Of a stretch of 63,529 bases of DNA, positions 6,652 through 63,529 are shown piece after piece. The notes beneath the pieces are model-generated. The model was given only the letters and a program-made list of their open reading frames with translations, searched no databases and had not been told where the DNA came from. The DNA is from an uncultured Clostridia bacterium (GTDB taxonomy: Bacteria; Bacillota; Clostridia; Christensenellales; CAG-917). Both the position numbers and the translations under genes were made by a program. Location: contig CANDBF010000003.1 in assembly GCA_947382865.1 (NCBI GenBank), positions 1 to 63,529 of the forward strand. The letters are read 5' to 3'. Every line of letters starts with the position of its first letter. The stretch's first letter is position 1.

Positions 6652-6653
6652 AT

Positions 6654-6788
6654 TTACGCCGAAATCTGCTTCCTGCCTCTGTTGCGACGGCGTCTCAAAA
6701 CGTTTCTGCCGGACTTGGTGCTCATCCTCTTGCGGAAGCCGTGCACTTTATTTCTCTGTCTCTTTTTGGGCTGGTATGTTTGTTTCAT
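6654..6788 (-). CDS. rpmH: 50S ribosomal protein L34
   Basis: Not in the ORF track (44 aa). Hand translation of the minus strand gives [44 protein letters not shown], with GGAAAAGGA upstream. Confidence 0.95.
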
Positions 6789-8663: not shown

Positions 8664-8700
8664 TGAATGTCCTCTTTGTATTGGTGTTGGTTGTATTGGC

Positions 8701-9029
8701 GACGTGCTCTATAAAATGGATACGTCGGGTACTCTAAAATCCCCCTTCCTCAGGTGTTCCCCCTATTGCGGTCTCTCACTTGGGATTCCCAAGCGAGCCT
8801 CTCCGCAAGCCTTCGGCGGGTGAACACAACGCGATTGGACTTTCAGTCAACAATCGCTATTCCGTCGCTACGCTCCTTACGGCGCTCGCATATACAAGCA
8901 TAGATCTCTGTTTATATCACTCGCTCACATGCAGAAAACGAAATTGCCTGTTCGCTTGTACAGAGCGTCAAGCTCGGCACTCGGGTTGGCGCGCGCCCTG
9001 CACGCGCCGGTACAGTCTCTTGAACAGCG
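8701..9029 (-). ncRNA. copy A of an unclassified ~330-400 nt structured repeat element (central-domain version 1, 5' module missing)
   Basis: About 8 mismatches by eye to copy B over ~175 nt. Shares conserved hairpins. A G.U wobble fits only the minus strand. No conserved ORF. Confidence 0.5.
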
Positions 9030-9258
9030 ATTTGCCGAAATCATGTTCGCGCAAACTGATTTTTTATCCGCTCGCTCACAAAGTGAGCAAAACTATATTT
9101 ACGCAAAAAGTGGAAATTTCTTTCACTTTTTGCCCCTTATGCGACGAAGCACGGTGAGCTTGCGGAGTGCGTGGAGTAGCGTTTGCGCTCACAGCACACG
9201 CGACAACTACAAACTAAAACAATCAATATAAACTTTCAGTTTTGTTGTCGCTGTGCGT

Positions 9259-16001: not shown

Positions 16002-16593
16002 AATTCCCTCCCGAGACGCACCGTCCCGAATATATATGTTTATATTCAAATAATATCAGTTTTAACTCTCAAATTCAAGACCGAATGTGCAAAAACAAGC
16101 CGTTTAGACATAGATTAGCCGCATGTTTAATTAACTTGTAAACCATAATGGATTTTATAAAATATTTCGTTACGTTATGCCAGTCCGATAGTTGCATACG
16201 CTCAATCAAATATAAATACCAATTCGATAAAGAAAAACCATTACAAAAACATAAATATTCATAAAAAACCTACGTGCACAGCCTTAAAAATGCAATTCTT
16301 CATCTTTGTATAGCCAGAAAAAGTGAATTTTATTATAAATAGACAGTTGAAAATTAACTTTCAAAATATAACGAGCATATTTATATGCACAAAATAAGCC
16401 TGTTTTTATAGATTTTTCTGCGTGAAACTATTACAAATTTTTAACAATTTTCAGTGAAACATCATGGGTGAAAAAATTTGGGTGAAAGAATGTAAAATTA
16501 GCTAAAATCCCATGAGGGACAAAGCGGACAAATTCTCAAAACACCACTAAAAAGCCGAAATATGCTACTGTTTAGTAGCATTTTAACAAAATG

Positions 16594-16609
16594 AGTTCCA
16601 CGTGAAACT
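16594..16609. promoter_or_regulatory. parS-like ParB binding site (14/16 to TGTTCCACGTGAAACA)
   Basis: AGTTCCACGTGAAACT. Confidence 0.6.
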
Positions 16610-16625
16610 AAAATCCCCTCCCATA

Positions 16626-16641
16626 TGTTTCACGTGGAACA
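16626..16641. promoter_or_regulatory. parS ParB binding site (perfect consensus)
   Basis: TGTTTCACGTGGAACA is the reverse complement of TGTTCCACGTGAAACA. Confidence 0.85.
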
Positions 16642-16923
16642 TAGCCATAGCGGCTTCTCTAAACCTTATTATGCCTACGCTAGTTTGCTCACAATGTCAC
16701 GACACGTCCGAGCATAATCAATACAAATATTACAGCTCATAAAGCTATAAATTCGATGGCTGGATTTTCGGCAATAATACTTTTATGTTTTATCCAACTT
16801 AAACTGCGGCATTGCGATTTAAGTATACGGCGTAAAAATAAACAAATCTTATATGGCAACTACACATTCTTGAATTCGACAAGGCAAACGATTGCGCCCC
16901 CGTTGGGGAATGACATGAATTAT

Positions 16924-17027
16924 ATTCGCCATACCCATTCGCCATACCCATTCGCCATACCCATTCGCCATACCCATTCGCCATACCCGTTCGCCATACA
17001 TATTCGTCATGCCTATTTGTCACACAT
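16924..17027. repeat. 13-bp tandem direct repeat ATTCGCCATACCC (5 exact units, then about 3 decaying units)
   Basis: Read directly. Exact units start at 16924, 16937, 16950, 16963 and 16976, followed by GTTCGCCATACAT, ATTCGTCATGCCT and ATTTGTCACACAT. Confidence 0.9.
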
Positions 17028-17066
17028 AATGTTTATGCAAAGCAAATATAATATAAATCAACAGAT

Positions 17067-17082
17067 TGTTACACGTGAAACA
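17067..17082. promoter_or_regulatory. parS ParB binding site (matches TGTTNCACGTGAAACA)
   Basis: TGTTACACGTGAAACA. Confidence 0.8.
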
Positions 17083-18115
17083 TTTTGATTTTTATCGACA
17101 ATAAATTAGTATATATTCTGCATTGGTCTGATATGTCGGTGTCTGATTAAAGTGCGCTTGATACAAAAATTTTTACTTAATACTTAGGTTAAACATTAAT
17201 TTTAGACGCGTAGGCATGGATAAGCGCACATTCATTATAATTAATTCTAATAAACGTTTACTTCAAACTTCTTACTATGACTTTGCGCGTTGGCTTTATT
17301 TCATATCGACAATGATACATTCTAGATTGCGGTTCATTTAACGATAATTAATATCAATAAATTTGAAGTAAATGCAAATAGCTGCAATAGTGGGGGACGC
17401 CTACAACTGAGTTTGATGAATATAGCGGTTTGCTTGATTTGAAGCTATGGGTTTTTGTCTGTAAATATCCAACTGTTATTATTTTTATAGACGATTGACT
17501 AAAACTTTTGTACGTCCGCTTATTATCGCCGCTCATTCCCGACGTTTGAATGATATTTTCCGCCCGATAAAGCAAATTACTTTGTTGCAAATTATATAAT
17601 TTTGATTTGTATTGTTTTCGGATGTCTGAATTTACGCCGCGATTACAGCTGTTATTCCAAAATTTTGAAATTAGAATTTGTAAATTCAATCGATATTTAA
17701 GCCTATCATCAAATCTCCGATTGGCTTTATAAGATATAGTACGGATTCGACAATATCATATCTTGTAATAGTTTATAAATTACAGAGCAATATGCGCCGA
17801 ATTACGGCTACCCGACTTTGTATATAGATATTTAGCCCAGAAACAATATATTACTTATGCGTAATGCGAATATCAAAAGCGGAGTGCGAATATTGAAATC
17901 GGAATAAATTCATTTTGATATTTCACGCACGACGATTTAAGCAAAATTCACCGTTTGTTTTATTTGCCGACGCGTTCACGAAATCGAAATCGCACAACGA
18001 TTTTCATTGCCAGTATGGTTCAAATGTAAACTGTTTTATACTTGACTATTTATGCTTTTTCAATGAAACGAACACAACGCGCGCAAAACTGTTTTTATTT
18101 AACCAATATGCGTAA

Positions 18116-20191
<2,076 letters not shown>

Positions 20192-20205
20192 TCTAGGAGG
20201 AAATT

Positions 20206-22770
20206 ATGGCAAACATAAGAGACGACAAAAACAACGAATATATACAGCACCTTGCCAACTCCACCGTCAAAAATATCGAGATTAACGGCGAGCTGAAAAA
20301 ATCCTTCATTTCATACGCGATGGCGGTCAACGTATCGCGCGCGATACCCGACGTACGCGACGGTCTCAAACCCGTTCACAGAAGGATACTTTACGCTATG
20401 AGCGAGCTGGGTCTCACCCCCGACAAGCCCTACCGCAAGTGCGCTATGGTCGTCGGAGAGGTGCTGGGTAAATACCATCCGCACGGAGACAGCTCGGTGT
20501 ACGACGCGCTCGTGCGCCTCGCGCAGGACTTTTCCATACGCTGTCCGCTTGTGGACGGGCACGGCAACTTCGGCTCGGTGGACGGCGACCCCGCGGCGGC
20601 GTACAGATACACGGAAGCGCGACTTTCCAAAATCGCGCTGGAAATGATACGCGACATCGACAAAAAGACGGTGGATTTCTATCCCAACTTCGACGACACG
20701 CGCGAACAGCCCACCGTACTGCCTTCCAGATTTCCCAATCTGCTCGTAAACGGCTCGGACGGTATAGCGGTCGGGATGGCGACGTCCATACCTCCTCACA
20801 ATCTCAGCGAGGTCATAGACGCGACTGTCGCGCTTATGCAGAACCCCGAAGCCACGGTGGACGAGCTTATGGAATATATTCCCGCCCCCGACTTCCCGAC
20901 GGGCGCGCTCATACTCGGCAGAAACACAATAAAGCAGGCGTACCGTACGGGTCGCGGCATGGCGATTCTGCGCGCCAAGGCGGAAATCGAAGAGCTCGCA
21001 AACGGCAAGAGCCGCATTATCGTCACCGAGATACCCTATCAGGTCAACAAAGCCAAACTTATCGAAAATATCGCAGACCAAGTCAAGGATAAGAGGCTGG
21101 AAGGCATTGCGGATTTGAGAGAGGAGACCGACCGCCACGGCATGCGTATCGTCATCGAGCTCAAAAAGGACGTCAACGCGCAGGTGCTTCTCAACCAGCT
21201 GTACAAGCAGACGGCGATGCAGACGAGTTTCAGCATGATACTGCTCGCGCTCGTGGACGGTGTGCCGCGCATACTCAACCTCAAAGAGATACTCGAAAGC
21301 TACGTCGCGCATCAGAAGGACGTCGTCATTCGCCGCACGCGCTTCGACCTTTCCAAGGCGCAGGAGAGACAGCATATCCTGCTCGGTCTGCACATAGCGC
21401 TCGAAAATATCGACGCTATCGTCGAGCTCCTCAAAAAGTCGCAGGACAGACAGGACGCAATGGCAAAGCTGATGGAGAACTACGCTCTGTCCGACAGACA
21501 GGCGGCGGCAATCCTCGATATGCGCCTGCAACGTCTGACGGGTCTCGAAGTAGAGAAGATAAACGCCGAGCTCGCCGACCTCGAAAAACAAATCGAATAC
21601 TTCAACTTCGTGCTTTCCCACGACGAGGAAGTCTGCGCGATTGTCGTCAAGGAGCTTTCCGACGTCAAAGCGCAGTACGGCACTCCCAGACGTTCGGAGC
21701 TCACCTACGACTACGGCGATATCGACATCGAGGACCTTATCGAAAAGGAGGACGTCGTCATTTCGATGACGCACAGCGGATATATCAAACGCATACCCGT
21801 CGCCGAATACAAGGCTCAGCACCGCGGCGGAATGGGCGTTACGGCGCATAAGGCAAAGGACGAGGACTTCGTCGAGAAGATATTCACCTCCAACACTCAC
21901 GAGCGGCTTATGTTCTTTACAAACCTCGGCAAGGTGTTCACTATGAAAGCCTACGAGATACCCGAGGCGAGCCGCAACGCGCGCGGCAGAGCGGCGGTCA
22001 ACCTGCTGCAACTCGAACAGGGAGAGCGCATTCAGGCGTTCTTGAAGCTGCCCGAGGAGAAGGAGGGCAAGTTCCTTATGCTCGCCACCAAGCGCGGACT
22101 TATCAAAAAAACTCCTCTGGAAGAATACGAGTCCATCAAGCGCAACGGCAAGATTGCAATCAAATTCAACGACGATGACGAGCTTATCGACGCGGTAATC
22201 ACCGACGGCGACAGCGAGCTTATAGTTGCTTCCGGCGCGGGAATGAGCATACACTTCCACGAGAGCGTAGTGCGCCCGATGGGAAGAACGGCAATGGGCG
22301 TAAAGGCGATGAGCCTTGCAAAGGGCGTGAACCTCGTCGCGTTCACCGCGGTCAAGGCGGGGGACGAAATCCTCACCGTCACCTCCAACGGCTACGGCAA
22401 GCGCAGCGACCTTGAAGACTATCCGTTGCAGGGCAGAGCGGGCAAAGGCGTCAAGGCGGGCGTGTTCAACGACAGAACGGGGTCTCTCGTATGCCTGAGC
22501 GTTATCCCCGCAGACACCGACGTTATGATGATAACCGACAGCGGAGTCATAATCAGAGTAGGCGCCGACGAGATAAGCAAAATCGGCAGAGCGACGCAGG
22601 GCGTGCGCATAATGAAGCTCAAAGGCGATAAGATAAACGTTATGGCGGTCGCGCTCACTCCGCACGAAGAAGAGGAGGAAATCTCCGAAAATGCGGATAC
22701 CGCGACTGTATCGGACGCGGCGGAAGAGACGCAAACGGCGGATACCGCGACTGAAACCACGGAAGAATAA
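20206..22770 (+). CDS. gyrA: DNA gyrase subunit A
   Basis: 854-aa ORF with GKYHPHGD, the catalytic-Tyr region [10 protein letters not shown] and an acidic C-terminal tail. Confidence 0.97.
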
Positions 22771-22785
22771 TGTCCCGATTATGAC

Positions 22786-22816
22786 AAAAAAGGCAGGAAT
22801 TATCCTGCCTTTTTTT
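22786..22816 (+). terminator. intrinsic terminator after gyrA
   Basis: AGGCAGGA, loop, TCCTGCCT followed by T6. Confidence 0.8.
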
Positions 22817-22899
22817 GCTGTCATTATTTGCATTGATAATTACAAAAATCGAAGTTTATATATTGATTATAAATATATAAACCTCGTTTTCGTAGTTTA

Positions 22900-23625
22900 T
22901 TATTTCTTTTTTATCGGCGGAAGCGGCTTTACAGAGCCTGTCACTGCGGCTATCACCGCGGGCAGAATTTCCTCGTACTTCGCAATGCCTCTTCTCACCA
23001 CCTCGTCAAAACTCACGGGCGCGGTTGCGTCCGCCTTGTCCGAAACCACTTTGACGGAAAGCAGAGGTATGCCGTTTCGCTCGCAGGCGATAGCAAGCGC
23101 GGCAAGCTCCATTTCGCATATGTCGCAACCAAACCTTTCGGCAAGCTCTTTTTTCTTGTCCGCGCTCGCCACAAACACGTCTCCGCTCGCGACCGCCACC
23201 CTGCGTATCGGCTTTCCGACCGCCGCCAATACCGCGTCTATAAGCGCGCCGTCCAATTTGAAATAAATGTCGTCCTTATCAAGATACTGTCCGACCTTTG
23301 TGCCGTCGATACGCGAAGTGTCGAACTGATAGTGGCATACTCTGTCGGCTATTACAAGCTCGCCGACTCCGATAGCGGGGTTGAGAGAGCCGACAAATCC
23401 GAAGTTGAGAATAACCTCCACGTCGAACAAATCCACAAGCGTCTGCGCCGTGAGCGCGGCGTTTATCTCGCCGACGCCGCAGGTCGCAAGATAGACGGTA
23501 TTGCCCGAAAGCTCTATTCTGCAAACATGCGCGCCGTGTATGGCGCTTTTTTCGACTACGCCTCCGAGCTTGCGATAAATAGGCAGAGTTTCCTCCGCCA
23601 TCGCGGTTACGATTCCTATTCTCAT
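22900..23625 (-). CDS. mtnN: 5'-methylthioadenosine/S-adenosylhomocysteine nucleosidase family protein
   Basis: PNP_UDP_1-like sequence (IGIVTAMAEE..., CEMELAALA). Start set at MRIGIV, preceded by GGAGG. Confidence 0.8.
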   Translation of the reverse strand: MRIGIVTAMAEETLPIYRKLGGVVEKSAIHGAHVCRIELSGNTVYLATCGVGEINAALTAQTLVDLFDVEVILNFGFVGSLNPAIGVGELVIADRVCHYQFDTSRIDGTKVGQYLDKDDIYFKLDGALIDAVLAAVGKPIRRVAVASGDVFVASADKKKELAERFGCDICEMELAALAIACERNGIPLLSVKVVSDKADATAPVSFDEVVRRGIAKYEEILPAVIAAVTGSVKPLPPIKKK

Positions 23626-23829
23626 ATGCGCCTCCGAATTCCGATTTATATTATAATACCACCCGCCGCCGCGCAATTCAATACGGCGAGATTTGAAAAC
23701 GAAAAAATTTTAAGCGGAAACGCAGCGATAATTATGACGCGCGCTTAATTCCGCGCGCATTGAAGAGTATCCGAAATATAATTTCCCTCCGCGGTTGATT
23801 TATGTCTCGGATAATGATAAAATTCGATT

Positions 23830-24522
23830 ATGGACGACTTGGAATTTCTCATCTTGCGCGCATCAGAGATAGGAGTTGAGCTCGACGGCGACACCGCCGC
23901 CGCGCTTCTTACGTACAAGAACCTCGTTCTGTCCGCAAACGAAAAATTCAATCTTACAGCGATAAAGGAAGACGGGGAGTTCATAGTCAAGCACCTCGTA
24001 GATTCCCTTTTGGGCGCAAGCGAAATTCCTTTCGGCGCAAGGCTCTGCGATATAGGCTCGGGCGCGGGCTTCCCCTGCGTGCCGCTCGCCGCGGCGCGAA
24101 AGGATATATGCGCTGTCGCGCTGGATTCCACCGCGAAGAAAATGAATTTCGTATCCGAAGCCGCAAAAAGCATAGGACTTGGCAACGTAAGCACGGTTGC
24201 GGGGAGAGCGGAAGAGCAGAAAAACCTGTTCGGCGCCTTCGACGCGGTGACGGCAAGGGCGGTGTCATCTCTGCCCGTGCTTTTGGAGCTCGCCATACCT
24301 CTTCTCAAAGTAGGGGGAGTTTTTATAGCGTATAAAACGGACGACGGCGAGCTTGAAATCTCAAAGCGCGCTCTTTCTGAGCTCGGCGCAAAATGCGTAA
24401 ATATAAAATCCGCCGCGCTTTACGGCGGAGACAAAAGGACAGTTCTCGTTTTTGAAAAGCTCAAAGCGACAAATCCCAAATATCCGCGGCTGTACGGCGC
24501 AATCAAGAAAAATCCGCTTTAA
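23830..24522 (+). CDS. rsmG: 16S rRNA (guanine527-N7)-methyltransferase RsmG (GidB)
   Basis: 230-aa ORF with SAM motif DIGSGAGFPCVPLA. Lies upstream of parA-parB as in many Firmicutes. Confidence 0.9.
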   Translation: MDDLEFLILRASEIGVELDGDTAAALLTYKNLVLSANEKFNLTAIKEDGEFIVKHLVDSLLGASEIPFGARLCDIGSGAGFPCVPLAAARKDICAVALDSTAKKMNFVSEAAKSIGLGNVSTVAGRAEEQKNLFGAFDAVTARAVSSLPVLLELAIPLLKVGGVFIAYKTDDGELEISKRALSELGAKCVNIKSAALYGGDKRTVLVFEKLKATNPKYPRLYGAIKKNPL

Positions 24523-24703
24523 TTTTTACGAATATCGTATCTGATAATTTCAATATTTCATTCTGGGAAAATCAAGCTCGATAACGTCTCGACTTTTGCC
24601 GAAGCAGTACAGGCGTATATATTATTTCCTAATTTATTTTATATTTATATAATTTTGTTTCGCGTTCCTTGAAAAATCCACCGCGTTATGTTACACTCAT
24701 TTT

Positions 24704-25471
24704 ATGGCTAGGATAATTTCTTTTTCAAATCAGAAGGGCGGCGTTGGCAAGACCACTTCCTGCGTGAACCTCGCCGCCGCGCTCGCCTTGCGCGGCAAAC
24801 GCGTTTTGATTGTGGATTTTGACGCGCAGTGCAACGCATCTAGCGCTCTCGGGGAGTTCGACAAACAGCCCGAGCATTCCGTATACTCGGTGCTATGCGA
24901 CAATCTTGCGGCAAGCGAGGCGATACGCAATTCGGATATTGAAAATCTTGACTTCATTCCCTCTTCCTGCGACCTCGCGGGAGCGGAGCTGGAGCTTTCT
25001 CAGATTGTCATCGGCAGAGAAAGGGTTTTGCAGGATAAGCTGTCCGAAATAGAGGAGAAATACGATTATATCTTTATCGACTGTCCTCCCTCTCTAGGTC
25101 TGCTCACCGTCAACGCTCTCACCGCTTCGTGCGGAGTTATCGTGCCAATTCAAAGTGAGTTTTACGCGCTCGAAGGTCTCAGCCAGATGATGAACACTAT
25201 AAAACTCGTCAAAAAGTTTTTGAATAAAGATCTTGAAGTCATCGGCGTCGTGCTTACGATGTTCGACGGCAGGTCAAAGCTGGCAAAGGGTGTGCTTGAT
25301 GAGATACTCAAGGTTTTCGGCGACAGGGTTTACGACGTAAAAATTCCCCGCAACATCCGTCTCGCCGAAGCGCCGAGCTACGGAAAACCCGTAGCGCTGT
25401 ACGACAAAAAATGCGCCGGAGCCGTCGCGTACGACGCGCTCGCGGACGAATTCCTTTCAAAAGAACAATGA
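24704..25471 (+). CDS. parA: chromosome partitioning ATPase ParA (Soj)
   Basis: 255-aa ORF with the deviant Walker A motif NQKGGVGKTT. Confidence 0.95.
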   Translation: MARIISFSNQKGGVGKTTSCVNLAAALALRGKRVLIVDFDAQCNASSALGEFDKQPEHSVYSVLCDNLAASEAIRNSDIENLDFIPSSCDLAGAELELSQIVIGRERVLQDKLSEIEEKYDYIFIDCPPSLGLLTVNALTASCGVIVPIQSEFYALEGLSQMMNTIKLVKKFLNKDLEVIGVVLTMFDGRSKLAKGVLDEILKVFGDRVYDVKIPRNIRLAEAPSYGKPVALYDKKCAGAVAYDALADEFLSKEQ

Positions 25472-25479
25472 GGTGAATT

Positions 25480-26412
25480 ATGGCAAATGTGAAAGGCGGA
25501 CTCGGTCAGAGAGGCATGAACGCATTGTTCAGAGACAACGTTGAAAACGTCAAGGTCGACGTTCCTTCCGATGTTCCCACGCAGGAAATCGATATAGCGC
25601 TTATCGACCGCAACCCCGGTCAGGCGAGAAAGTCCTTCGATGAGGAAAGCCTGCAATCGATGGCGAGCTCAATCGCAATGTACGGCGTTCTTCAACCAAT
25701 TCTGCTCGTAAAGAGCGAGGGCGGAAGATATATGATTATCGCGGGCGAGCGCCGTTTCAGAGCGAGCCTTAAAGCGGGTCTTAAAACAATTCCCGCAATC
25801 GTGAAAAATCTTTCCCCGCAGGAAATTCAGGAAATCTCGCTTATAGAAAACCTGCACCGTGAAAACCTCAACGCGATAGAAGCCGCCGAGGGCATACGCG
25901 AGCTGATGGAAAATCACGGTCTTACTCAGGAGGAAGTCGCCGTTCGCATCGGCAAATCCCGTCCCTACGTCACCAATACGCTGAGGCTTCTCCAACTCCC
26001 AGAAGAGGTTATGGATATGGTCAAGTCGGGCAAGCTCTCGCCGGGACACGCGCGTACCATTCTTCCCGTAGACAACAAGGAAAAGCTGATAGAGTTTGCA
26101 AAGCTCTCCTGCGAAGAGGGCATTTCCGTGCGCGATATGGAGAGGATTGTGCAAAACTATCTCAACGCGCCAAAATCCAGTGCACCCGCGCAAAGGCGTA
26201 AAAAGGAAGCGCTTCCCCTTGAATTCAAAGCGTTCGTCAACGATATGAAAAGACTCTTTTCCACAAAGGTAGTTCTTAAACGCAACGGAGACAAGGGAAG
26301 AATTATCATCGACTATTTCAACAACGACGACCTTGAGCGCATTCACGCCATAATGCACCTTCTTCAAATACAGGCGAACAATTCAAGTACCTTCAACGAA
26401 AAGGATAATTGA
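25480..26412 (+). CDS. parB: chromosome partitioning protein ParB (Spo0J)
   Basis: 310-aa ORF with the ParB box IIAGERRFRA and an HTH region (GLTQEEVAVRIGKSRPYVTNTLRLL). Confidence 0.95.
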   Translation: MANVKGGLGQRGMNALFRDNVENVKVDVPSDVPTQEIDIALIDRNPGQARKSFDEESLQSMASSIAMYGVLQPILLVKSEGGRYMIIAGERRFRASLKAGLKTIPAIVKNLSPQEIQEISLIENLHRENLNAIEAAEGIRELMENHGLTQEEVAVRIGKSRPYVTNTLRLLQLPEEVMDMVKSGKLSPGHARTILPVDNKEKLIEFAKLSCEEGISVRDMERIVQNYLNAPKSSAPAQRRKKEALPLEFKAFVNDMKRLFSTKVVLKRNGDKGRIIIDYFNNDDLERIHAIMHLLQIQANNSSTFNEKDN

Positions 26413-26542
26413 GACGGAATAAATAAAATTTATTTTACGGCATCAAATTTGCAATAAATCACAAAACGCCCGTTTTATACGGACGTTTCGCTTATATAAA
26501 GTGTCGTTTGTGTTTTATAATCTAAAATTTATGACTATTGTT

Positions 26543-27688
26543 TTAATCCGTTAACGCTGACATAAAATATTCATTTCTTTTGTTATTTTTTGCCGTGCCG
26601 TCCATGACGTAAATTCCGTTATATTCGCAATCGAGATTGAATTCCGTACAGGTAATGACCGTCTGAAAGCCATTCGTCATATCGAGCAGGAGCTTTTGTC
26701 TGTCTATATCGAGTTCGCTGAGAACGTCGTCAAGAAGCAGTACGGGCGCTTCTCCGATTTCGTTTTTATAAATTATAACCTCTCCGAGCTTGAGAGCGAG
26801 CGCGACCGTGCGCTGCTGTCCCTGCGACGCAAACTTTCTGCTGTCCTTGCCGTTTATCTCTATTTTTATATCGTCGCGGTGCGGACCGACGGTTGAGTAG
26901 CCAATCTCCTTATCCTTTGCGCGCGCGGATACAATACTTTCATACAGTTTTTTTTCTATCTCTTCCGTATTAGTTTTTTTGATGTTTTCGTTATCGAATA
27001 CAAGAGAGCTTTCGTATGAGAGTTTAAGGCTTTCCTTTTCGCTGCTTATGGCGTTGTGAAACCTGCTTGCCGCGTCATTGAGAGTGTCTATATATGCTAT
27101 ACGCTTGGACATAATAACAGCGCCTTCCTTTGCAAGACAAGCGTCCCATACGTCCAGCATATCGTCTATGTTGCGGCTCTTACTCCACTCCTTCAAGAGA
27201 TTGTTTTTTTGCTTTAATGTCTTGTTGTAACGTTGAAGTGAGTAAAAATAACTGCGCTGCTGCTGACTTAGCCCCACGTCCATAAATCTGCGTCTTTCCT
27301 GCGGCGATTCCTTGACCAGTTTCATTTCGTCGGGGGAGAAAAACACAACGCCCAGCACTCCGAACAGCTCGCCCGCGCGATTTAGCGGAATGTTGTCCAC
27401 AAGTACCTTTTTCTTCCCTTTGTCGTCTATTTGCAGATTTATCGTCTGTTTTTTATATTTGGTTTTGAGAGTAAGAGATACGGTTGCTTTATTTTCTCCG
27501 ATCAGCACCATTTCCTTGTCCTTTACGGTGCGGGGACTGTGAAATATGGAGCATAGATATATGCTTTCCAGCATATTGGTTTTGCCGCTGGCGTTTTTTC
27601 CGTAAAGCACGTTGAGCCCGTCGTCGAAATCGACATTTACGCGCTTGTAATTTCTGAAATTATTCAACTCCAACGAGAGAATTTTCAT
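26543..27688 (-). CDS. recF: DNA replication and repair protein RecF
   Basis: 381-aa ORF starting MKILSLELNNFRNY, with Walker A GKNASGKTN and C-terminal LLLDDVLSELD. Confidence 0.93.
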   Translation of the reverse strand: MKILSLELNNFRNYKRVNVDFDDGLNVLYGKNASGKTNMLESIYLCSIFHSPRTVKDKEMVLIGENKATVSLTLKTKYKKQTINLQIDDKGKKKVLVDNIPLNRAGELFGVLGVVFFSPDEMKLVKESPQERRRFMDVGLSQQQRSYFYSLQRYNKTLKQKNNLLKEWSKSRNIDDMLDVWDACLAKEGAVIMSKRIAYIDTLNDAASRFHNAISSEKESLKLSYESSLVFDNENIKKTNTEEIEKKLYESIVSARAKDKEIGYSTVGPHRDDIKIEINGKDSRKFASQGQQRTVALALKLGEVIIYKNEIGEAPVLLLDDVLSELDIDRQKLLLDMTNGFQTVITCTEFNLDCEYNGIYVMDGTAKNNKRNEYFMSALTD

Positions 27689-27759
27689 ATTGACAGTATA
27701 TCTTAGATGCGACCTTTTTTCAACTTACTTTATTTGTTTTTTCTTTTTTTGCAATTCGC

Positions 27760-27787
27760 TTGAATTATTCGCCCGTTTTGATATAAT
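27760..27787 (+). promoter_or_regulatory. candidate dnaA promoter abutting the start codon
   Basis: TTGAAT, 16 nt, TATAAT. The -10 box ends 7 nt before the dnaA ATG and no Shine-Dalgarno sequence lies between. Confidence 0.45.
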
Positions 27788-27794
27788 TCTTTAT

Positions 27795-29165
27795 ATGGTA
27801 GATATAGAAAATTTTTGGGTCGAATGTAAAGAAGAGCTTTCTACTTCCTTTCAGACGATAGTGTACGAGGTATGGATAGAAAAACTCAAACCCGTTTGTT
27901 TTGTGGACAACAAGCTGGTTTTGTCTACCATCGCACAGCAGGCCAAGCGCACCGTAGAAACAAAATATCTCGACAGAATAAAGAGCGTGGTCGTAAGCAA
28001 AAATCCGTCGGTTTCTGACGTTATAGTGATTTTGGAATCTCAGGCGGCGGAGTATATGGAAAAGCAAAACGAGTTTTTTGAAAACGGCGGGTCGCCCTCA
28101 AAAACGGAAAAAAACCAGCGCTCCGTCAAAAAATGTCCCTTTCTTGAAAAATATACCTTCGATACATTTGTCGAAGGAAAGTCAAACGCATACGCATTGG
28201 CTGCCTGCAAAACCGTATCCGAAAATATAGGAACAAAATACAATCCTCTTTTTATATACTCCGGCGTAGGTCTCGGAAAAACTCACCTTTTGCACGCAAT
28301 CGGAAATCTTATCTACAAGCAGTCTCCAAAAAGCAACGTTCTTTATGTTAGCGCGGAAACGCTCGTAACAGAGCTTATATCCGTAATACGCAGTAAATCT
28401 CCCGAGGATAACACCAATTTCAGAGAAAAATACCGCTCCTGCGATATCCTCATGATAGACGATATACAGTTTCTCATCGGCAAGGACGCGACGCAGGAGG
28501 CTTTTTTCCATATATTCAACGACCTGTATCACGAAAACAAGCAAATCATACTCACCTCCGACAGATCCCCAAAAGACCTTACAACGCTCGAAGACAGACT
28601 TCGCACGCGTTTCAGCTGGGGTCTTACGGTCGATATACAGGCTCCCGATATGGAAACGAGGGTCGCTATCCTTAAAAACAAAGCCGCGCAGTCGAGATTT
28701 TCTCTATCCGACGAGGTAGCTGAATTTATTGCGGAAAACTCAACCTCGAATATAAGAGAGATGGAAGGCTTACTCAACAAAATTATATTTTTTAGCTCTC
28801 TTTCAAACAATACGATTACCACGCGCGCGCTTGCCGAGGAAGCTCTGAGCGACTTTATCGAGGATAAAAAGGACACAATAGACACAAGCGATATAGTAGG
28901 CGCAGTCTGTAAATATTATAAAATATCTACGGAAGACCTCTTTTCCAAAAAGAAAACCAAAAATCTCGTCGAGCCCAGAATGGTCGCTATCTATCTCATC
29001 ACCGAGCTTCTCCCTACGCCGCTAGTTCAGATAGGAGAGATATTCGGCGGAAGAGACCATACTACGATAATTCACGCAAGAGACAAAATAACGGACGAAA
29101 TCAAAGTGAATCCGCGCATACGCATAACTGTTGCCGATATAAAGAATATGCTTCTAAACAGATAA
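27795..29165 (+). CDS. dnaA: chromosomal replication initiator protein DnaA
   Basis: Start at MVDIENFW. AAA+ motifs GVGLGKTHLLHAIG and LMIDDIQF. Domain IV has GGRDHTTIIHARDKI. Confidence 0.95.
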   Translation: MVDIENFWVECKEELSTSFQTIVYEVWIEKLKPVCFVDNKLVLSTIAQQAKRTVETKYLDRIKSVVVSKNPSVSDVIVILESQAAEYMEKQNEFFENGGSPSKTEKNQRSVKKCPFLEKYTFDTFVEGKSNAYALAACKTVSENIGTKYNPLFIYSGVGLGKTHLLHAIGNLIYKQSPKSNVLYVSAETLVTELISVIRSKSPEDNTNFREKYRSCDILMIDDIQFLIGKDATQEAFFHIFNDLYHENKQIILTSDRSPKDLTTLEDRLRTRFSWGLTVDIQAPDMETRVAILKNKAAQSRFSLSDEVAEFIAENSTSNIREMEGLLNKIIFFSSLSNNTITTRALAEEALSDFIEDKKDTIDTSDIVGAVCKYYKISTEDLFSKKKTKNLVEPRMVAIYLITELLPTPLVQIGEIFGGRDHTTIIHARDKITDEIKVNPRIRITVADIKNMLLNR

Positions 29166-29203
29166 GCAAAATTCTTTCTCCGTCTTCATAATCCGTTATT
29201 TAA

Positions 29204-29240
29204 TAAAAAAACAGTTCGCTTTTTGCGGACTTTTATTTTT
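29204..29240. terminator. hairpin terminator between convergent dnaA and dnaN
   Basis: AGTTCGC, loop, GCGGACT, flanked by an A-run and a T-run. Confidence 0.6.
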
Positions 29241-29284
29241 ATACTTTTCATCTTTTATAAGATAATGAAAATTTTATAGCATTA

Positions 29285-29316
29285 GAAAAAAATCCGCTGT
29301 ATGGCGGATTTTCTTT
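29285..29316. terminator. second bidirectional hairpin terminator between dnaA and dnaN
   Basis: AATCCGC, loop, GCGGATT, flanked by A7 and a T-rich run. Confidence 0.65.
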
Positions 29317-29333
29317 ATATTATGTTTTCAATC

Positions 29334-30434
29334 TTAACCTATAACTCTTAACGGCAGTATAAGATATTTCCACTTTCCGCTCTCACCCTCGATAACCGCA
29401 GGAGACGTCGACGTGTTGAAATTGAAGGTTATAAACGGCTCGTCTATGACTTTCAGACAGTCGATGAGATATTTGGGGTTGAAGCCTATCGTAAGATCCT
29501 TTCCGTTGAGACCTATAACCACCTTTTCATTTATCTCGCCGTCCTCGCTCTTCGCGTTGAGCATAACCGCGTTTTCCTTAATTTCTATTTTGACGTTGGA
29601 ATTTTTGCCGACGCGGTTTATAAGCGATACGCGCTCGACTGCGCTTTCAAACATTTTTTTGTCGATTGTAGCGACGGTCCCGAAATTAGGAGGAATGATT
29701 TTTTCGTAATTAAGGAATTCCTCGCCAATAAGCCTCGTCACTATTTTGGTGTGGAACAAATCCACCATAACGTAATTCCTCTCTACGTATACTGTGACCG
29801 TTTCCTCTCCGTCGTCTATAAGTCGGCTAAGCTCCGTTATACTCTTTGTTGGGATTATAATTTTGTTTACAACGCCGTTGTTTTTGACGGGCGCGTTGGC
29901 AATAGCGAGCCTGTATCCGTCGGAAGCCACCGCCTCGACGGTATCTCCCTTTACGTTCAGACATACTCCGCGGAGATTGGGACGTCCTTCGTCTGAAGCG
30001 ACGTCGAACAGCACCTTTCCTATAATCTCCTTGAAATCCTTTTTGAGAAGTATTATGGAATTTTCGGTGTTAACCTCGTTGAAAACAGGGTATTCGTCCG
30101 AGCTCATGCAGTTTATCTGCAATTCGCTGTCAAGATACCTTATGATAAGTTTTGTAGTTATCGTGCCGTCGAGCTCTATCTGTTCCTCTTCTATTTTTTT
30201 GGCGTAATCCGCAAACAGCTTGCCGGGGACAACCGTTTCTCCTTCGATAAGCACCTGCGCGTTTATTTTTTTCTCTATCGCAAGCTCAAGATCCGTTGCG
30301 AATATAGTGAGAGTGTCGCCTACCGCCGTAAGTTTGACTCCGTCAAGAATAGGATTGTTTCTTTTTACGGGAAGAGCCTTTACAACCTTAGAGAGAGCGT
30401 CGCTCAACTCGTTTCCCTGACACAAAACTTTCAT
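29334..30434 (-). CDS. dnaN: DNA polymerase III subunit beta (sliding clamp)
   Basis: About 366 aa, three-domain clamp-like sequence. Start set at MKVLCQG with AGGTG 6 nt upstream; the track ORF starts at a GTG 9 nt further up. Confidence 0.93.
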   Translation of the reverse strand: MKVLCQGNELSDALSKVVKALPVKRNNPILDGVKLTAVGDTLTIFATDLELAIEKKINAQVLIEGETVVPGKLFADYAKKIEEEQIELDGTITTKLIIRYLDSELQINCMSSDEYPVFNEVNTENSIILLKKDFKEIIGKVLFDVASDEGRPNLRGVCLNVKGDTVEAVASDGYRLAIANAPVKNNGVVNKIIIPTKSITELSRLIDDGEETVTVYVERNYVMVDLFHTKIVTRLIGEEFLNYEKIIPPNFGTVATIDKKMFESAVERVSLINRVGKNSNVKIEIKENAVMLNAKSEDGEINEKVVIGLNGKDLTIGFNPKYLIDCLKVIDEPFITFNFNTSTSPAVIEGESGKWKYLILPLRVIG

Positions 30435-30647
30435 ACGTTTCACCTGATTGTTTATTATATTTTATCTTTAATAATGATAACATATATAAGCTCTGTTGAC
30501 AAGTGGAAAAATATCATTGAAACACTATGTTTAGTTGTATGGCATAGTATAAAATCGCAATATTTTGTAATAAATGCATTTAATTTTTGTGGATAGTTTT
30601 CAAAAGAGTTCAACATTTGCTTAACATACGGGCTAAGTTGTCAACAC

Positions 30648-31679
30648 TCAGAAAGGAAGAGCGCCGAAAGAGAATATGAGTGAGAAAATATATCCTGTGA
30701 AAACGCTTATTAAAAAAGTTGCCGAAAATATGACAAAACTGCGACCCAAATGCTTCGTATCTCTAAAAAGCAGCATAAAACCGAGCCCTGCGTTCATGCA
30801 AAGTCCGCCGAGAGTAGCACCGAAGCCGAGACCGCCCATAATATAAAGCTCGCTTAAAACTATGGAAGAAACACAGTTGGGAACAGCGCCTATAATCACT
30901 GAAAATAAAGGAGCTATATATTTGTTGGAGGAGATGAACGCAATTATTTTATCCTCCCCGACGTAATGTAAAATAACTCCGAAAATTATGTTCACGATGA
31001 AAACGTAAACGAATATTTCGAGAGAGTGGAGCAGCGGTTTAAGCAAAAATCTTTCCGCTTTTTTTCTCTTATCTTCTTTTTTGACGAAATTCTGATTATA
31101 TTTGTAAAGCACGCCTTTTCCGCTTTTGATTTCTTCGTTATGAGCTTTGTGATTTTCACATTCGGAGTGAGAGCATTCCTCGCATGAGCATTTTTCTTTG
31201 CAATCCTCCGAAACAACAAGCTCAGCGCTGTCGCAGTGCATAAGGCGAATACGGTATTCATCATTGCAATGCTCGATATGGTGGCGCACGGCGCGGCGGT
31301 TCTTTACACAAATAAAATCAATTAGATATCCGAAAATCAATCCGACAACAAATTTTAGTCCCAAAATCGGCAATATATGCAGAGCTTTTTCCGGATAGCT
31401 GAGAAAGATAGGAAGAGCCTCGTCGGAAGTGGCGATAAAAACGCCTATCAGCGTACCTACGGTTATGTGACGTTTTTTGTATAAATCGGTTGCGACCACC
31501 GAAAATCCGCATTGAGGCAATAGAGAAATACTCACGCCGATAAGCGGGGCGAGTTTTCCGTTGAGTCTGATTTTGTTTGATAAAAACGGCTCTATCGCGG
31601 CTATTATGTACGTGAAAACCGCAACGACCGCAAAAATTTTCAGACTGTCCAAAAATGCGTCGAGTATAACTTCTGCCAT
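30648..31679 (-). CDS. polytopic membrane protein with Cys/His-rich central loop (putative metal exporter/permease, ArsP_2-like)
   Basis: 343-aa ORF with about 10 hydrophobic segments, motifs LLPQCGFSV and ATSDEALPI, and the loop HHIEHCNDEY...CKEKCSCEECSHSECENHKAH. The family name is from memory only. Confidence 0.55.
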   Translation of the reverse strand: MAEVILDAFLDSLKIFAVVAVFTYIIAAIEPFLSNKIRLNGKLAPLIGVSISLLPQCGFSVVATDLYKKRHITVGTLIGVFIATSDEALPIFLSYPEKALHILPILGLKFVVGLIFGYLIDFICVKNRRAVRHHIEHCNDEYRIRLMHCDSAELVVSEDCKEKCSCEECSHSECENHKAHNEEIKSGKGVLYKYNQNFVKKEDKRKKAERFLLKPLLHSLEIFVYVFIVNIIFGVILHYVGEDKIIAFISSNKYIAPLFSVIIGAVPNCVSSIVLSELYIMGGLGFGATLGGLCMNAGLGFMLLFRDTKHLGRSFVIFSATFLISVFTGYIFSLIFSFGALPF

Positions 31680-31835: not shown

Positions 31836-31959
31836 TGCGAAGCGTCCACTTCGGAAGAAGTGTCGAAGCGCAAAACGCGCGGCAAAAATTGCCGCAGGGG
31901 GTTCGAGAATATATAAAGAAAAGCACGACAGTTGTCGTGCTTGCTTGGCGCCTGTTGAG
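31836..31959. repeat. direct repeat copy 2: the last 14 nt of tRNA-Asn plus its terminator and downstream sequence
   Basis: 124 bp matching 32061-32184 with 2 mismatches by eye. Confidence 0.9.
31911..31942 (-). terminator. duplicated copy of the tRNA-Asn terminator hairpin
   Basis: AAGCACGACA, 2-nt loop, TGTCGTGCTT followed by a U-rich tail on the minus strand. Confidence 0.5.
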
Positions 31960-32060: not shown

Positions 32061-32184
32061 TGCGAAGCGTCCACTTCGGAAGAAGTGTCGAAGCGCAAAG
32101 CGCGCGGCAAAAATTGCCGCAGGGGGTTCGGGAATATATAAAGAAAAGCACGACAGTTGTCGTGCTTGCTTGGCGCCTGTTGAG
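32061..32184. repeat. direct repeat copy 1, overlapping the tRNA-Asn 3' end
   Basis: See the partner at 31836-31959. The period is 225 bp. Confidence 0.9.
32134..32167 (-). terminator. intrinsic terminator after tRNA-Asn
   Basis: A 10-bp stem, AAGCACGACA paired with TGTCGTGCTT, plus a U-rich tail. Confidence 0.65.
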
Positions 32185-32246
32185 GGACTCGGACCCCCGA
32201 CACTTCGGTTAACAGCCGAATGCTCTACCGACTGAGCTAAACAGGC
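32171..32246 (-). tRNA. tRNA-Asn (anticodon GTT), CCA encoded
   Basis: Minus strand reads GCCTGTTTAGCTCAGTCGGTAGAGCATTCGGCTGTTAACCGAAGTGTCGGGGGTCCGAGTCCCTCAACAGGCGCCA. Folded by hand it gives a cloverleaf with a 7-bp acceptor stem and anticodon loop CTGTTAA. Confidence 0.93.
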
Positions 32247-55717: not shown

Positions 55718-56260
55718 TTATTGCGGGAGAATGGGAATTGACGCGAGATATTTCACGTCCGTGCGCGCCGCGGCGTCGCCCTCTGCGAGCACAAAGGCTT
55801 TGTCTACGATAATGCCGCCCGCAAGCCGCACGATATCCTCTATGCCTTTGAGGCTTCCGCCCGTGGATACGACGTCGTCTACTATCGCCACGCGCCTGCC
55901 GCGCAGCAAATCCGCGTCGTGCTTGCTTAGATACAGAGTCTGGATTTCGCCCGTCGTGATGGACTGAACGCTTGTGTGCAAGCCGTCCTGCATATACAGC
56001 TTTTTGGACTTGCGGCATACGGCGTAGTAGTCTTGTCCCAGCTCCCTCGCCACGACGTGCGCCAGCTGTAAGCCTTTTGATTCCGCCGTTATGATAATAT
56101 CGCAGGGGCTCAGGCGTTTTGCGATTGCCTTTCCGCAGTGCTCCGTGAGAGCTTGATTGCCGTGCAGATTGAAGAAGCAGATGCTTATGCCCGACGGCAA
56201 CGGCAGTATGGGAAGCTCGGCTTTTGCGCCGCATATATCAAGCGTATAAAATTTATCCAT
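55718..56260 (-). CDS. phosphoribosyltransferase family protein (purine PRT-like)
   Basis: 180 aa from MDKFYTL. PRPP-binding motif VAIVDDVVSTGGS. Confidence 0.8.
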   Translation of the reverse strand: MDKFYTLDICGAKAELPILPLPSGISICFFNLHGNQALTEHCGKAIAKRLSPCDIIITAESKGLQLAHVVARELGQDYYAVCRKSKKLYMQDGLHTSVQSITTGEIQTLYLSKHDADLLRGRRVAIVDDVVSTGGSLKGIEDIVRLAGGIIVDKAFVLAEGDAAARTDVKYLASIPILPQ

Positions 56261-56384
56261 AGTATCACCCGAAAATAGTTTTACGACGGATATATTATAA
56301 AATAAATAATTAGAATTTTCAACCGACTTTGTAAGTGATTTATAAGTATATTTTTGAACGTAGATTATATAGATTTTGAACGTT

Positions 56385-56788
56385 CGCCTTATCAAGCTGA
56401 GGGGACGTGCTCTACAAAGGTGCACGGCGGGTATTTTAATTAAATTTCCCCCTTCCTCAGGTGTTCCCCCTATTGCGGTCTCTCACTTGGCGTTCCCAAG
56501 TGAGCCTCTCCGCAAGCCTTCGGTGGGGGAACACAACGCGATTGGACTTTCAGTCAACAATCGCTATTCCGTCGCTACGCTCCTTACGGCACTCGCATAT
56601 ACAAGCATAGAGCACTGTTTATGCCACTCGTTAGGGAGCGAATAAACAGGACTCGCTCCCTCACTTGTACAGAGCGTCAAGCTCGGCACTCGGGTTGGCG
56701 CGCGCCCTGCACGCGCCGGTGCAGTCTCTTGAACGGCGACTCGTCGTGCTCACACCCGTTCAAGCAGAGAGCAAGCGCTTTGGTGCGC
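56385..56788 (-). ncRNA. copy B of the structured repeat element (full length, central-domain version 1)
   Basis: Matches copy A (version-1 domain) and copy C (5' modules). Lies between the XRE gene and the PRT gene on the same strand. Confidence 0.5.
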
Positions 56789-56895
56789 AAGATTGTTCCC
56801 AGAGCGGAGACTCGTGATTAGACAAAGATTGTGCACTCGATACTCGGGTTTGTGTGTTTAGTTTTTTTGATTTATAAGATATTCGCAAAGCAATT

Positions 56896-57108
56896 CTAAA
56901 ATCCGAATAAGTCGTTGGGAGTTATATCAAACAAGCGACACAGCATATCGATTTTATAGTAATCAAGTTCCATTCTTTCGGTTTCATATCGGCTGTATAC
57001 GGTTTGTTTTGTATTCATTATTTCCGCAACCTGTTGTTGCGACATGCCTTTTGCTTCTCGTGCCGCTCTAAGATTTTTGCTTACTATACTTTTCATATTT
57101 TTTTCCAT
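56896..57108 (-). CDS. XRE-family helix-turn-helix transcriptional regulator
   Basis: 70-aa ORF with the HTH_3 pattern LRAAREAKGMSQQQVAEIMNTKQTVYSRYE. AGGTGA Shine-Dalgarno. Confidence 0.85.
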   Translation of the reverse strand: MEKNMKSIVSKNLRAAREAKGMSQQQVAEIMNTKQTVYSRYETERMELDYYKIDMLCRLFDITPNDLFGF

Positions 57109-57153
57109 AGTTTCACCTGCATAGAAATTTTATATGATAGTACTAAAAAAGTA

Positions 57154-57182
57154 TTGATATAGAACTAGTTTGGTACTATGAT
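57154..57182 (+). promoter_or_regulatory. candidate promoter for the 109-aa ORF in the divergent spacer
   Basis: TTGATA, 17 nt, TATGAT. The spacer also holds inverted ATAGTAC/GTACTAT half-sites, possibly an operator. Confidence 0.45.
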
Positions 57183-57206
57183 ATTTGTGGAAAAAGGAGA
57201 ATAATT

Positions 57207-57536
57207 ATGAGTAAGGTTAAAGAATGTTGGAATTGTAGATATTATAGGGCGTTTTACACTAAGGGTTTTAGTCGGTTTAATAAGCAAAAAATTGGAATTT
57301 GTAATGTTGAAAATCGAATTATTGGAGATAAGCATATTTCCTGTGACAAATGGTGTAATGGTTTTGAGATTAAAAATATCAGGCAGGTAGCTGCAATCAA
57401 AAGAATAGACGAAACTACGGATTGCCTTATACAAATCAAACAAATTTTGATTGAGGAAAAAGAAGAGTTACAAGACATAAAAGTGATAGAACTTCCAAGT
57501 ATAAATAAAAAAATAAAAAAGTATCTATCAGATTGA
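57207..57536 (+). CDS. Cys-rich 109-aa hypothetical protein (putative zinc ribbon plus helical tail)
   Basis: Strong Shine-Dalgarno (AAAGGAGAA, 7 nt spacing). Cys pattern CWNC...C...C..WC. Divergent from the XRE gene. Confidence 0.7.
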   Translation: MSKVKECWNCRYYRAFYTKGFSRFNKQKIGICNVENRIIGDKHISCDKWCNGFEIKNIRQVAAIKRIDETTDCLIQIKQILIEEKEELQDIKVIELPSINKKIKKYLSD

Positions 57537-57547
57537 GTAACGATTAT

Positions 57548-57905
57548 GCGCACTTAACGCGCTTGCACTCGGCTTGATAAGGTGTGAGCACGACGAGCCG
57601 CTGTTCAAGAGACTGCACCACAGCGCGTGCAGGGCGCGCGCCAACCTGAGTGCCGAGCTTGACGCTCTGTACAAGTGAGGGAGCGAGTCCTGTTTATTCG
57701 CTCCCGAACGAGTGATATAAACAGAGCTCTATGCTCGTATATGCGAGTGCCGAGTTCCCCTCCCGTGAGCAACGTATAGTATAAGCAGAAAGCGTTCCTA
57801 TTCCGAGCGGGAGGGGAAAGCCCGTAGGGAAGGGGTGGGTTATCTAATTAAAATAAACAACGTACACCCTTTATAGACCGCGTTACACCTCAGCTTTATA
57901 AGGTG
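57548..57905 (+). ncRNA. copy C of the structured repeat element (full length, central-domain version 2)
   Basis: The 5' ~190 nt nearly match the reverse complement of copy B. The version-2 domain is identical to copy D over the last 46 nt of the window. Confidence 0.5.
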
Positions 57906-57946
57906 CAAAATATAAAGTATTTTAGTTCTGTCACAAACCCAAATAT

Positions 57947-57973
57947 AAAAGCCTCGGATTTTCCGAGGCTTTT
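57947..57973. terminator. bidirectional intrinsic terminator
   Basis: AAAAGCCTCGG, loop, CCGAGGCTTTT. Confidence 0.85.
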
Positions 57974-57994
57974 ATATTGTTCTCAACTTAAATT

Positions 57995-58129
57995 TTACTT
58001 GCAGTCGGAGCAGTTGCACTCTTTTACAGGCTTCGTCGATTTGGACTTTGAAGAAGTCTTGGTTTCGTTGCAATGACAATCGCTTGTCGGTTTTTTGCTC
58101 TGCTTGCTCGTCGTTGTTGATTTTGCCAT
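57995..58129 (-). CDS. 44-aa Lys/Ser/Thr-rich, Cys-containing small protein (not in the ORF track)
   Basis: Hand translation gives MAKSTTTSKQSKKPTSDCHCNETKTSSKSKSTKPVKECNCSDCK. AAGGAG lies 8 nt upstream and the terminator follows directly. Confidence 0.6.
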   Translation of the reverse strand: MAKSTTTSKQSKKPTSDCHCNETKTSSKSKSTKPVKECNCSDCK

Positions 58130-63268: not shown

Positions 63269-63307
63269 CGCGCACTGCATCCCAATATCACGGTTTTTAC
63301 AGATTTT

Positions 63308-63529
63308 GGTTTGTAAGGTGTGAACACGACGAGTCGCCGTTCAAGATACTGCCGGCGTTCGCAGGGCGAACGCCCCGTGAGTGCCGAGCCGAGCTTCGCA
63401 GTACAAGGGAGCAAACGAGCTTTATTTATTTTCGTTTGCGACCGAGTGACATAGATAGAGTAATATGCCAATAGGCGAGCGCCGAGTTCCCCTCCCGTGA
63501 GCAACGTATAGTATAAGCAGAAAGCGTTC
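63308..63529 (+). ncRNA. copy D of the structured repeat element (cut by the window end, central-domain version 2)
   Basis: Same module order as copy C but with compensatory changes in two stems. Confidence 0.5.

Follow-up and report, generated by a model that had tools for sequence, protein, structure and literature searches.

Within the IS110/IS1111 family of insertion sequences, IS4321/IS5075 and IS1111-attC elements insert at one position and in one orientation, in the 38-bp terminal inverted repeats (TIRs) of the Tn21 family or in attC hairpins. When a specific target of this kind lies at both inverted ends of another unit, two insertions yield a mirror-image pair. A second relevant group is formed by the CIMEs, cis-mobilisable elements flanked by att sites which were described in Streptococcus thermophilus and which undergo site-specific accretion. 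The window analysed here, the whole of a 63,529-nt stretch of DNA from an uncultured Clostridia bacterium, holds such a mirror-image pair: two copies of a non-coding repeat, hereafter the element, stand in inverted orientation around a divergent pair of genes. By analogy, the layout appears most to resemble the targeting of transposon ends by IS4321/IS5075, and arrays formed by the same element appear to resemble att-site accretion. Like IS4321/IS5075, the element has no terminal inverted repeats of its own and a fixed orientation relative to its target; those insertion sequences are about 1.3 kb long and encode a DEDD transposase, whereas the element is roughly 320-395 nt long and has no ORF, no such transposase was seen here, and the junction repeat is longer (13-17 nt). 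CIMEs and the element are both non-autonomous, with att-like direct-repeat cores and head-to-tail arrays that share a core, but CIMEs are kilobases long, bear genes and use one chromosomal att site, whereas the element is tiny, dispersed and has an RNA-like fold. The original prediction, made from the sequence alone, had been that no described system is known to have this layout, and on that point we agree.

Bacterial intergenic repeats offer another comparison. The category of mobile/repeat sequence candidates among structured nucleic-acid motifs defined in PMC11109978 shares with the element, as do REP/BIME, ERIC, BOX, RUP, Correia and bcr1 repeats, the properties of being multicopy, intergenic, folded and co-transcribed with neighbours. 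The element differs from all of these in being much larger, with multiple helices and swappable domains, in its lack of terminal inverted repeats, in its head-to-tail arrays and in the absence of any transposase association among its copies. It fits the broad PMC11109978 category, being much larger and more modular than the usual members, and, like those repeats, it is probably selfish. The large RNAs ROOL, GOLLD, OLE, raiA and HEARO/omega-RNA are, like the element, several hundred nucleotides long, with many covarying helices, invariant unpaired blocks and optional peripheral domains, whereas the element matches no Rfam model even at E<=10. With 4-6 copies per 75 kb and a presence or absence that differs between sister lineages, the element looks more like a selfish repeat than like a housekeeping RNA gene.

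Searches of the window with nhmmer and with a covariance model both detected exactly four copies: A (8690..9040, minus strand, between ychF and argS), B, C and D (63300..63529, plus strand, cut by the window end). The body of copy B occupies 56398..56752 on the minus strand (nhmmer E 9e-77; covariance model 114.5 bits) and contains a conserved core of about 105 nt (56587-56691) and a variable domain, version 1, at about 56447-56586. Copy A carries the same version (56447-56630 versus 8740-8923, 95% identity). The body is bounded on the same strand by a 3' direct-repeat core, GCTTGATAAGGCG (56385..56397), with one mismatch to the core, and by a 5' core read from the sequence, GCTTGAACGGGTG (56753..56765); the flanks of the body, likewise read from the sequence, are ..ATCAAGC| and ..GTTCAAGC|. 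Next to the 5' core lies a leader (56766..56790, minus strand), and leader and adjoining core together make up the left one of two inverted repeats of about 39 bp that bound the gene cassette. The right one (57547..57584, plus strand) consists of the inverted counterpart of that leader and the 5' core of copy C, GCTTGATAAGGTG (57572-57584). It is followed by the body of copy C (57585..57892, plus strand; nhmmer E 6.4e-89; covariance model 116.3 bits), which contains its own conserved core (57648-57752) and a different domain, version 2 (about 57753-57840), that it has in common with copy D (57739-57797 versus 63471-63529, 97%), and then by its 3' core, GCTTTATAAGGTG (57893..57905, plus strand). 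Beyond lies the hairpin with a T-run that had been predicted downstream of C (57947-57972); it is a bidirectional terminator, read from the sequence, with terminator-like partial Rfam alignments.

Inside the cassette, a gene for a 70-aa XRE-family helix-turn-helix regulator (56896..57108, minus strand) and a gene for a 109-aa protein with four conserved cysteines (57207..57536, plus strand) diverge from a promoter region (57109..57206; GC 0.28-0.33) with TTGATA-17-TATGAT at 57154-57182 on the plus strand (10/12 matches). The stop codon of the XRE gene lies 105 nt from the 5' end of B and that of the 109-aa ORF 10 nt from the leader of C, and a scan of the coding strand found no intrinsic terminator between either gene and its arm. 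The GC content of the cassette is 0.28-0.37, compared with 0.54-0.58 outside. That two outward-facing inverted copies surround a divergent XRE/Cys-rich pair is thus borne out by the inverted-repeat search, by BLAST and by the Pfam HTH_3 match (E 4.5e-11), with several measurements to be amended. Taking the shared 5' leader into the arms, their inner limits are 56790 (B) and 57547 (C), with 756 bp between them rather than the 759 bp first given. The inverted-repeat search matched 56587-56716 with 57623-57752 (130 nt, 95% complementary) and 56698-56781 with 57556-57639 (84 nt, 80%), and BLAST aligned B and C at 89.7% over 214 nt; the arms are indeed near-identical, the earlier estimate of roughly 10 differences over about 190 nt being too low against about 22 over 214 nt. 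They do carry differing domains, which lie in a 3'-proximal position and not in a central one.

The element is a multicopy structured repeat whose units are bounded by direct repeats of a 13-17-nt core, CTCRGCTTGATAAGGYG, and no terminal inverted repeats occur at its termini. The core occurs six times in the window compared with 1.15 occurrences expected, and three of the six lie at the ends of B and C. Strong conservation across relatives extends over about 105 nt, with the pattern GAGUGCCGAGC..GUACAAG..hairpin..CGAGUG..AUAA..GCGAGYGCCG. Comparison of copies shows module-like swapping of the 5' hairpin region, of the 3'-proximal domain and of some inserts, and this exchange of domains seems to have crossed species boundaries. 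For ten copies RNAalifold predicted a structure of 35 pairs in which 95.1% of cells are paired and 15 of the 35 pairs show compensatory changes; none of 500 shuffles was as good, and slid controls reached 30-59%. Cells with G-U (57) far outnumber cells with A-C (8), which assigns the fold to one strand, namely the plus strand for C and D and the minus strand for A and B. The compensatory changes and the strand-specific G-U bias are what a structured RNA would leave, with single-stranded DNA that folds as a possible alternative. No internal promoter was found in it by scan or by eye.

The analysis had about 15 copies to draw on, which came from about six genomes. Scans of a genome collection with the sequence pattern recovered relatives from two MAGs only (L001-L004), a metagenome scan gave four true loci (L011, L014, L015 and L016) along with three chance matches, and two scans of viral contigs gave either nothing or only chance coding matches (L005-L009), so that by pattern scan the relatives of the element come from only a few uncultured Clostridia/Clostridiales assemblies. 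At the gathering score, the sole Rfam match in the window is a tRNA; at E<=10 no match on 56250-58000 overlaps B or C, and at E<=1 seven loci with copies gave zero matches. Distant-mode blastn against phage and plasmid collections retrieved no element match either, and the arms do not correspond to the ends of a known IS or MITE family. The same composite unit, as expected of a MITE or composite transposon, was not found elsewhere, the Cys-rich protein having element flanks at this locus only. For a bacterial intergenic repeat the family is unusually large and ornate, and its absence from Rfam, strong covariation and clean pattern of presence and absence make it a tractable case for the spread of non-coding repeats that lack a transposase.

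Several identities were considered for the element and set aside. A T-box or other leader was suggested by copy A abutting argS and by the L004 copy abutting an SDR gene; there is no consistent gene association, and the reading was rejected because in the related locus L011 the argS-side copy lies in a different spacer and orientation. A group II intron was suggested by a 5' GUGUG and a D5-like hairpin in version 1, but Rfam gave no match, the bulge occupies the wrong strand, and version 1 is an optional domain. Nor is the leader a diverged 3' hairpin of the element, the similarity beyond the core being 14 compared with a shuffle mean of 15.6. Among the more distant copies we also noted an optional insert, GGCGCGACGCGTTAA..GTAGCC.AAGCGAACGAG..GAAGTC, in a fifth copy of the window's species, E (insert at L021 2330-2400), and in a much larger relative in L014 (4620-5290; insert 5150-5240); a hairpin, TCGGGYGGGACACCCACACCCGA, which adjoins copies in two metagenome contigs (L011 at about 4290-4320, L014 at about 4575-4605); and AT-rich AATAATTAATA runs before and after copies in L011 and L016. 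In L015, two full tandem copies and then a lone version-1 domain fragment (5890-6720) lie between a hydrogenase operon and nadE, convergent with nadE.

Related forms of the module locus were traced through the gene next to it, which encodes a phosphoribosyltransferase (PRTase). L021, another strain of the window's species (98.4% identical over 9.5 kb), has the same layout of B, cassette and C in the same orientation, and a short contig (L019) agrees. In a sister lineage (L022/L023, PRTase 93% identical) only arm C is present, its copy C ortholog lying at 8940-9282 of L023, so that the two lineages differ in arm B. The stretch GAACGTTCGCCTTATCAAGC-[B body]-CCCGTTCAAGC-AGAGAGCAAGCGC of the window corresponds in the sister to GAACGTTCACCTTTATCAAGC|AGAGTGCAAGCGC, which is a precise empty site with one core, left as a single copy, and no body. 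The left leader is retained there without the element body, at 97% identity over 31 nt. The sister cassette encodes a 67-aa XRE protein, 26% identical to that of the window, and a 65-aa HTH protein, and is bounded by the same inverted repeats of about 39 bp, leader plus core, with breakpoints exactly at their inner edges. In three outgroups (L026, L028 and L030, PRTase 80-82% identical) neither cassette nor element was found at this locus, which has only UDG, a 44-aa gene with its terminator and the PRTase promoter; it follows that the entire block was inserted within the clade formed by the window's species and its sister. The terminator at 57947-57972 is ancestral and belongs to the 44-aa gene, a hairpin terminator being found at the same position in the module-free outgroups L028 and L030. 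The 44-aa ORF itself (57995-58129, minus strand) is Lys/Ser/Thr-rich with Cys pairs (CHC..CNC..C) and no family match, and it is kept at the same position in L030 (4740-4874).

Away from the module, the element is equally variable in position. L011 is syntenic with the window around rpmH/rnpA-argS-ychF; its argS-rpmH spacer, which in the window contains a terminator alone, holds an opposite-strand copy, and its ychF-argS spacer is 215 nt long without a copy where the window has copy A. Past the point at which the window ends, L021 has copy D in full, with copy E and then a truncated third copy behind it in head-to-tail order, every junction of this array being a variant of the core, GCTTGATAAGGYG; nearby lies a mini-copy with an internal deletion and both ends kept. 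D and E are absent from the sister lineage. The element has expanded recently in the window's species. Core-region identities are mosaic (B-C 94%, A-E 91%, C against its own sister ortholog 82%), so that copies of the element must convert one another. The window spans the replication origin, with gyrB, gyrA, recF, a DnaA-domain ORF (27690-29165, plus strand) and dnaN, and the GC skew switches sign at some point from about 16 to 30 kb (16000-31000). Copy A to the left of the origin on the minus strand and copies C, D and E to the right on the plus strand all read along with the fork, B being the exception, in a sample too small to separate such a bias from one of gene orientation.

The gene pair, for its part, is found without the element. 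The XRE protein scores 43 bits against the HTH_3 cut-off of 23, as expected of an XRE/Cro-CI regulator, and is 76% identical to an XRE protein in an unrelated context (L017). For the 109-aa protein a word-indexed search retrieved nothing but this locus and a single protein at 51% identity, and an exhaustive profile search retrieved 268 cluster representatives at E<=1e-3, of 83-127 aa, which have C7, C10, C32 and C46 as invariant residues and a conserved C-terminal helix. Its AlphaFold2 model (pLDDT 88) has a small beta zinc knuckle followed by a 40-residue helix; no family match was found in Pfam, PHROGs, NCBIfam or PADLOC and no fold match in the PDB, the best Foldseek match there having an E of 2.7. 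In every context examined a member of this family is paired divergently with an XRE gene. One pair (L017) follows cysS and has plain terminators and no repeats, one (L032-36) lies inside a tRNA cluster, and one (L037/38) is bracketed by 300-nt direct repeats that belong to an unrelated family. Neither nhmmer nor the covariance model found the element near any of them, and the occurrence of the pair without it in three other contexts points to an independent, horizontally moving two-gene unit, which, judging from its neighbourhoods, tends toward hot spots beside repeats or tRNA genes. In L037, the pair is flanked by arrays of a GC-rich repeat with units of about 102 nt (1900-2700 and 3419-3964), and the 300-nt direct repeat (1965-2264 / 3488-3787) is 95% identical. 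In L017, the pair has a third gene, for a 78-aa membrane protein (5456-5692); since it is missing in the window, the window cassette may be a reduced version.

As in CI/Cro-type divergent pairs and among XRE-type antitoxins, a small XRE repressor here stands divergent from a second small protein in AT-rich, horizontally moved DNA. The pair differs from these systems in that the partner is an uncharacterised, predicted four-Cys zinc-knuckle and coiled-coil protein, that the two genes do not form a co-directional toxin-antitoxin operon and that the context is not that of a phage. A type II toxin-antitoxin system with an XRE antitoxin was accordingly considered and rejected, the genes being divergent and the partner having no Pfam, NCBIfam or PADLOC family. 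The XRE/four-Cys pair is a widespread, unnamed two-gene unit; both it and the repeat family are new.

On balance, and from sequence comparison, we take the mirror-image layout to be a recent by-product of the spreading of the repeat and not a conserved functional module, an explanation that we hold to be somewhat more likely than not; the comparisons do not support the module as a unit with a function. The account that we find somewhat probable is that the direct-repeat core was present at both inverted ends of the cassette, that two independent insertions made the palindrome, and that gene conversion then made the arms alike. An AT-rich foreign cassette, acquired separately and encoding the divergently transcribed XRE repressor and zinc-knuckle protein, would have been bounded by the inverted repeats of about 39 bp, whose outer tips are the element's own direct-repeat core. 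One copy of the repeat would have entered the core at each tip and, the orientation being fixed, the copies would consequently point outward. Copy C would have come in before the sister lineage diverged and copy B thereafter, and gene conversion would have homogenised the 5' halves of the two, which would leave these nearly identical while the 3' domains differ. Insertion at the core could have proceeded, for example, through a circular form integrated by a recombinase acting in trans. A crossover within GCTTGA would leave one core in an empty site, two in a filled one and n+1 in arrays, and this is the pattern of cores found at B relative to the sister and in the D-E array. With such a crossover, the 5' core of B would carry element-type bases and its 3' core target-type bases, and the circle junction would read ..CCCTCAGCTTGA.ACGGGTGTGAGC.. 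Under this account the module as such would be ordinary, its symmetry coming from the choice of target site and from gene conversion, and it is not conserved.

A number of observations weigh against insertion at the core. Of the 13 positions of the core, 4 are not the same at the 5' and the 3' end of B; a crossover within GCTTGA would account for this, and so would an old copy. Compared with the sister, the D/E site is no clean insertion, and copy A has no recognisable core at either end. No transposase, recombinase or reverse transcriptase lies near any copy, no recombinase was found in the approximately 75 kb of the genome examined, and no excised circle or circular junction was observed. 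With neither recombinase nor circular junction, and with the empty site of the sister lineage open to being read as a deletion between the two cores, we place the insertion account only a little above even.

The main rival builds on that possible deletion. Originally, the module was thought to be possibly a small mobile unit ended by the elements, a form of the idea that is not supported: the search for the same layout and for empty sites recovered the complete layout only in the window's species (the window and L021) and at no other locus, the sister lineage has a precise B-empty site, one arm and a different cassette, and L017, L032-36 and L037/38 have the gene pair but lack the element. In a modified form, the head-to-head pair of B and C would be ancestral and serve as a capture or exchange site, cassettes being swapped by homologous recombination within the flanking copies, and the sister would have lost the body of B. 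The same inverted repeats do enclose two different cassettes, with the breaks falling precisely where the leaders end on the inner side, the sister's leader with a single core is what a deletion between direct repeats would leave, and the homologous pair in L037 is again bracketed by repeats, albeit of another family and in direct orientation. Nevertheless, we judge a capture site unlikely. No donor with the same flanks was found, the pair in L017 lies between plain terminators, and the version-1 half of B is 95% identical to A and its core 94% identical to C when the orthologous C copies reach only 82%, which is easier to explain with a young B.

A further proposal was that the arms act as RNA, as large structured 3' UTRs of the two genes, with the folded 3' domain stabilising the transcript, being processed out or blocking read-through. 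Part of this holds. With no terminator detected between each gene and its arm, read-through would plausibly put the arms in the cassette mRNAs, as a consequence of the layout and not as its purpose; the strand-specific fold places each arm on the sense strand of its gene, and 5 of 5 copies of the window's species are co-oriented with the upstream gene. However, homologous gene pairs lack the element, the sister XRE gene lacks an arm, copies in L003 and L011 are antisense to both neighbouring genes, and the PRTase gene keeps its own promoter (11/12 matches) downstream of B. The association between gene and element not being conserved, the arms are not a built-in feature of the gene pair and any role as RNA in these mRNAs would be at best secondary, so that we regard this explanation of the layout as quite improbable. 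The remaining suggestion, a cassette that flips as an invertible switch by recombination between its inverted arms, is very improbable: the arms share 130 nt at 95%, and their homogenisation (94% versus 82% for orthologs) shows that they recombine, having exchanged sequence, so that inversion is still physically possible, but no invertase or other recombinase gene lies among the neighbouring genes, three independent assemblies (the window, L021 and L019) have the cassette in one and the same orientation, and both genes have their own promoters inside the cassette, so that flipping would change little.

Beyond the two insertions that we prefer as the source of the palindrome stands a bolder and rather doubtful claim, namely that the element is a new RNA-structured, protein-less mobile unit which integrates at its own 13-17-nt core with the fold as its working part. 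In such a unit the fold might act as a guide RNA, or as one of the bridge kind, for a trans-acting recombinase, or might provide the template for RNA-mediated copying. Complementarity of the bridge-RNA kind between loops and core was looked for by eye only; matches are at most 6-7 nt and inconsistent in sense. If the claim were true, the swappable domains would represent modular evolution of that RNA, and the palindrome would be a natural case in which elements of this kind had targeted another mobile unit, the cassette, at its two ends.

Two further repeats of the window were noted outside the element family. One is a tandem repeat at 16911-17038, made up of about 9 copies of a 13-nt unit, ATTCGCCATACCC, in AT-rich sequence close to the origin. 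The other is a direct repeat of 124 nt (98%) at 31836-31959 and 32061-32184, the second copy of which overlaps the 3' part of a tRNA-Asn gene (32171-32246, minus strand) and which could be an att-like duplication.
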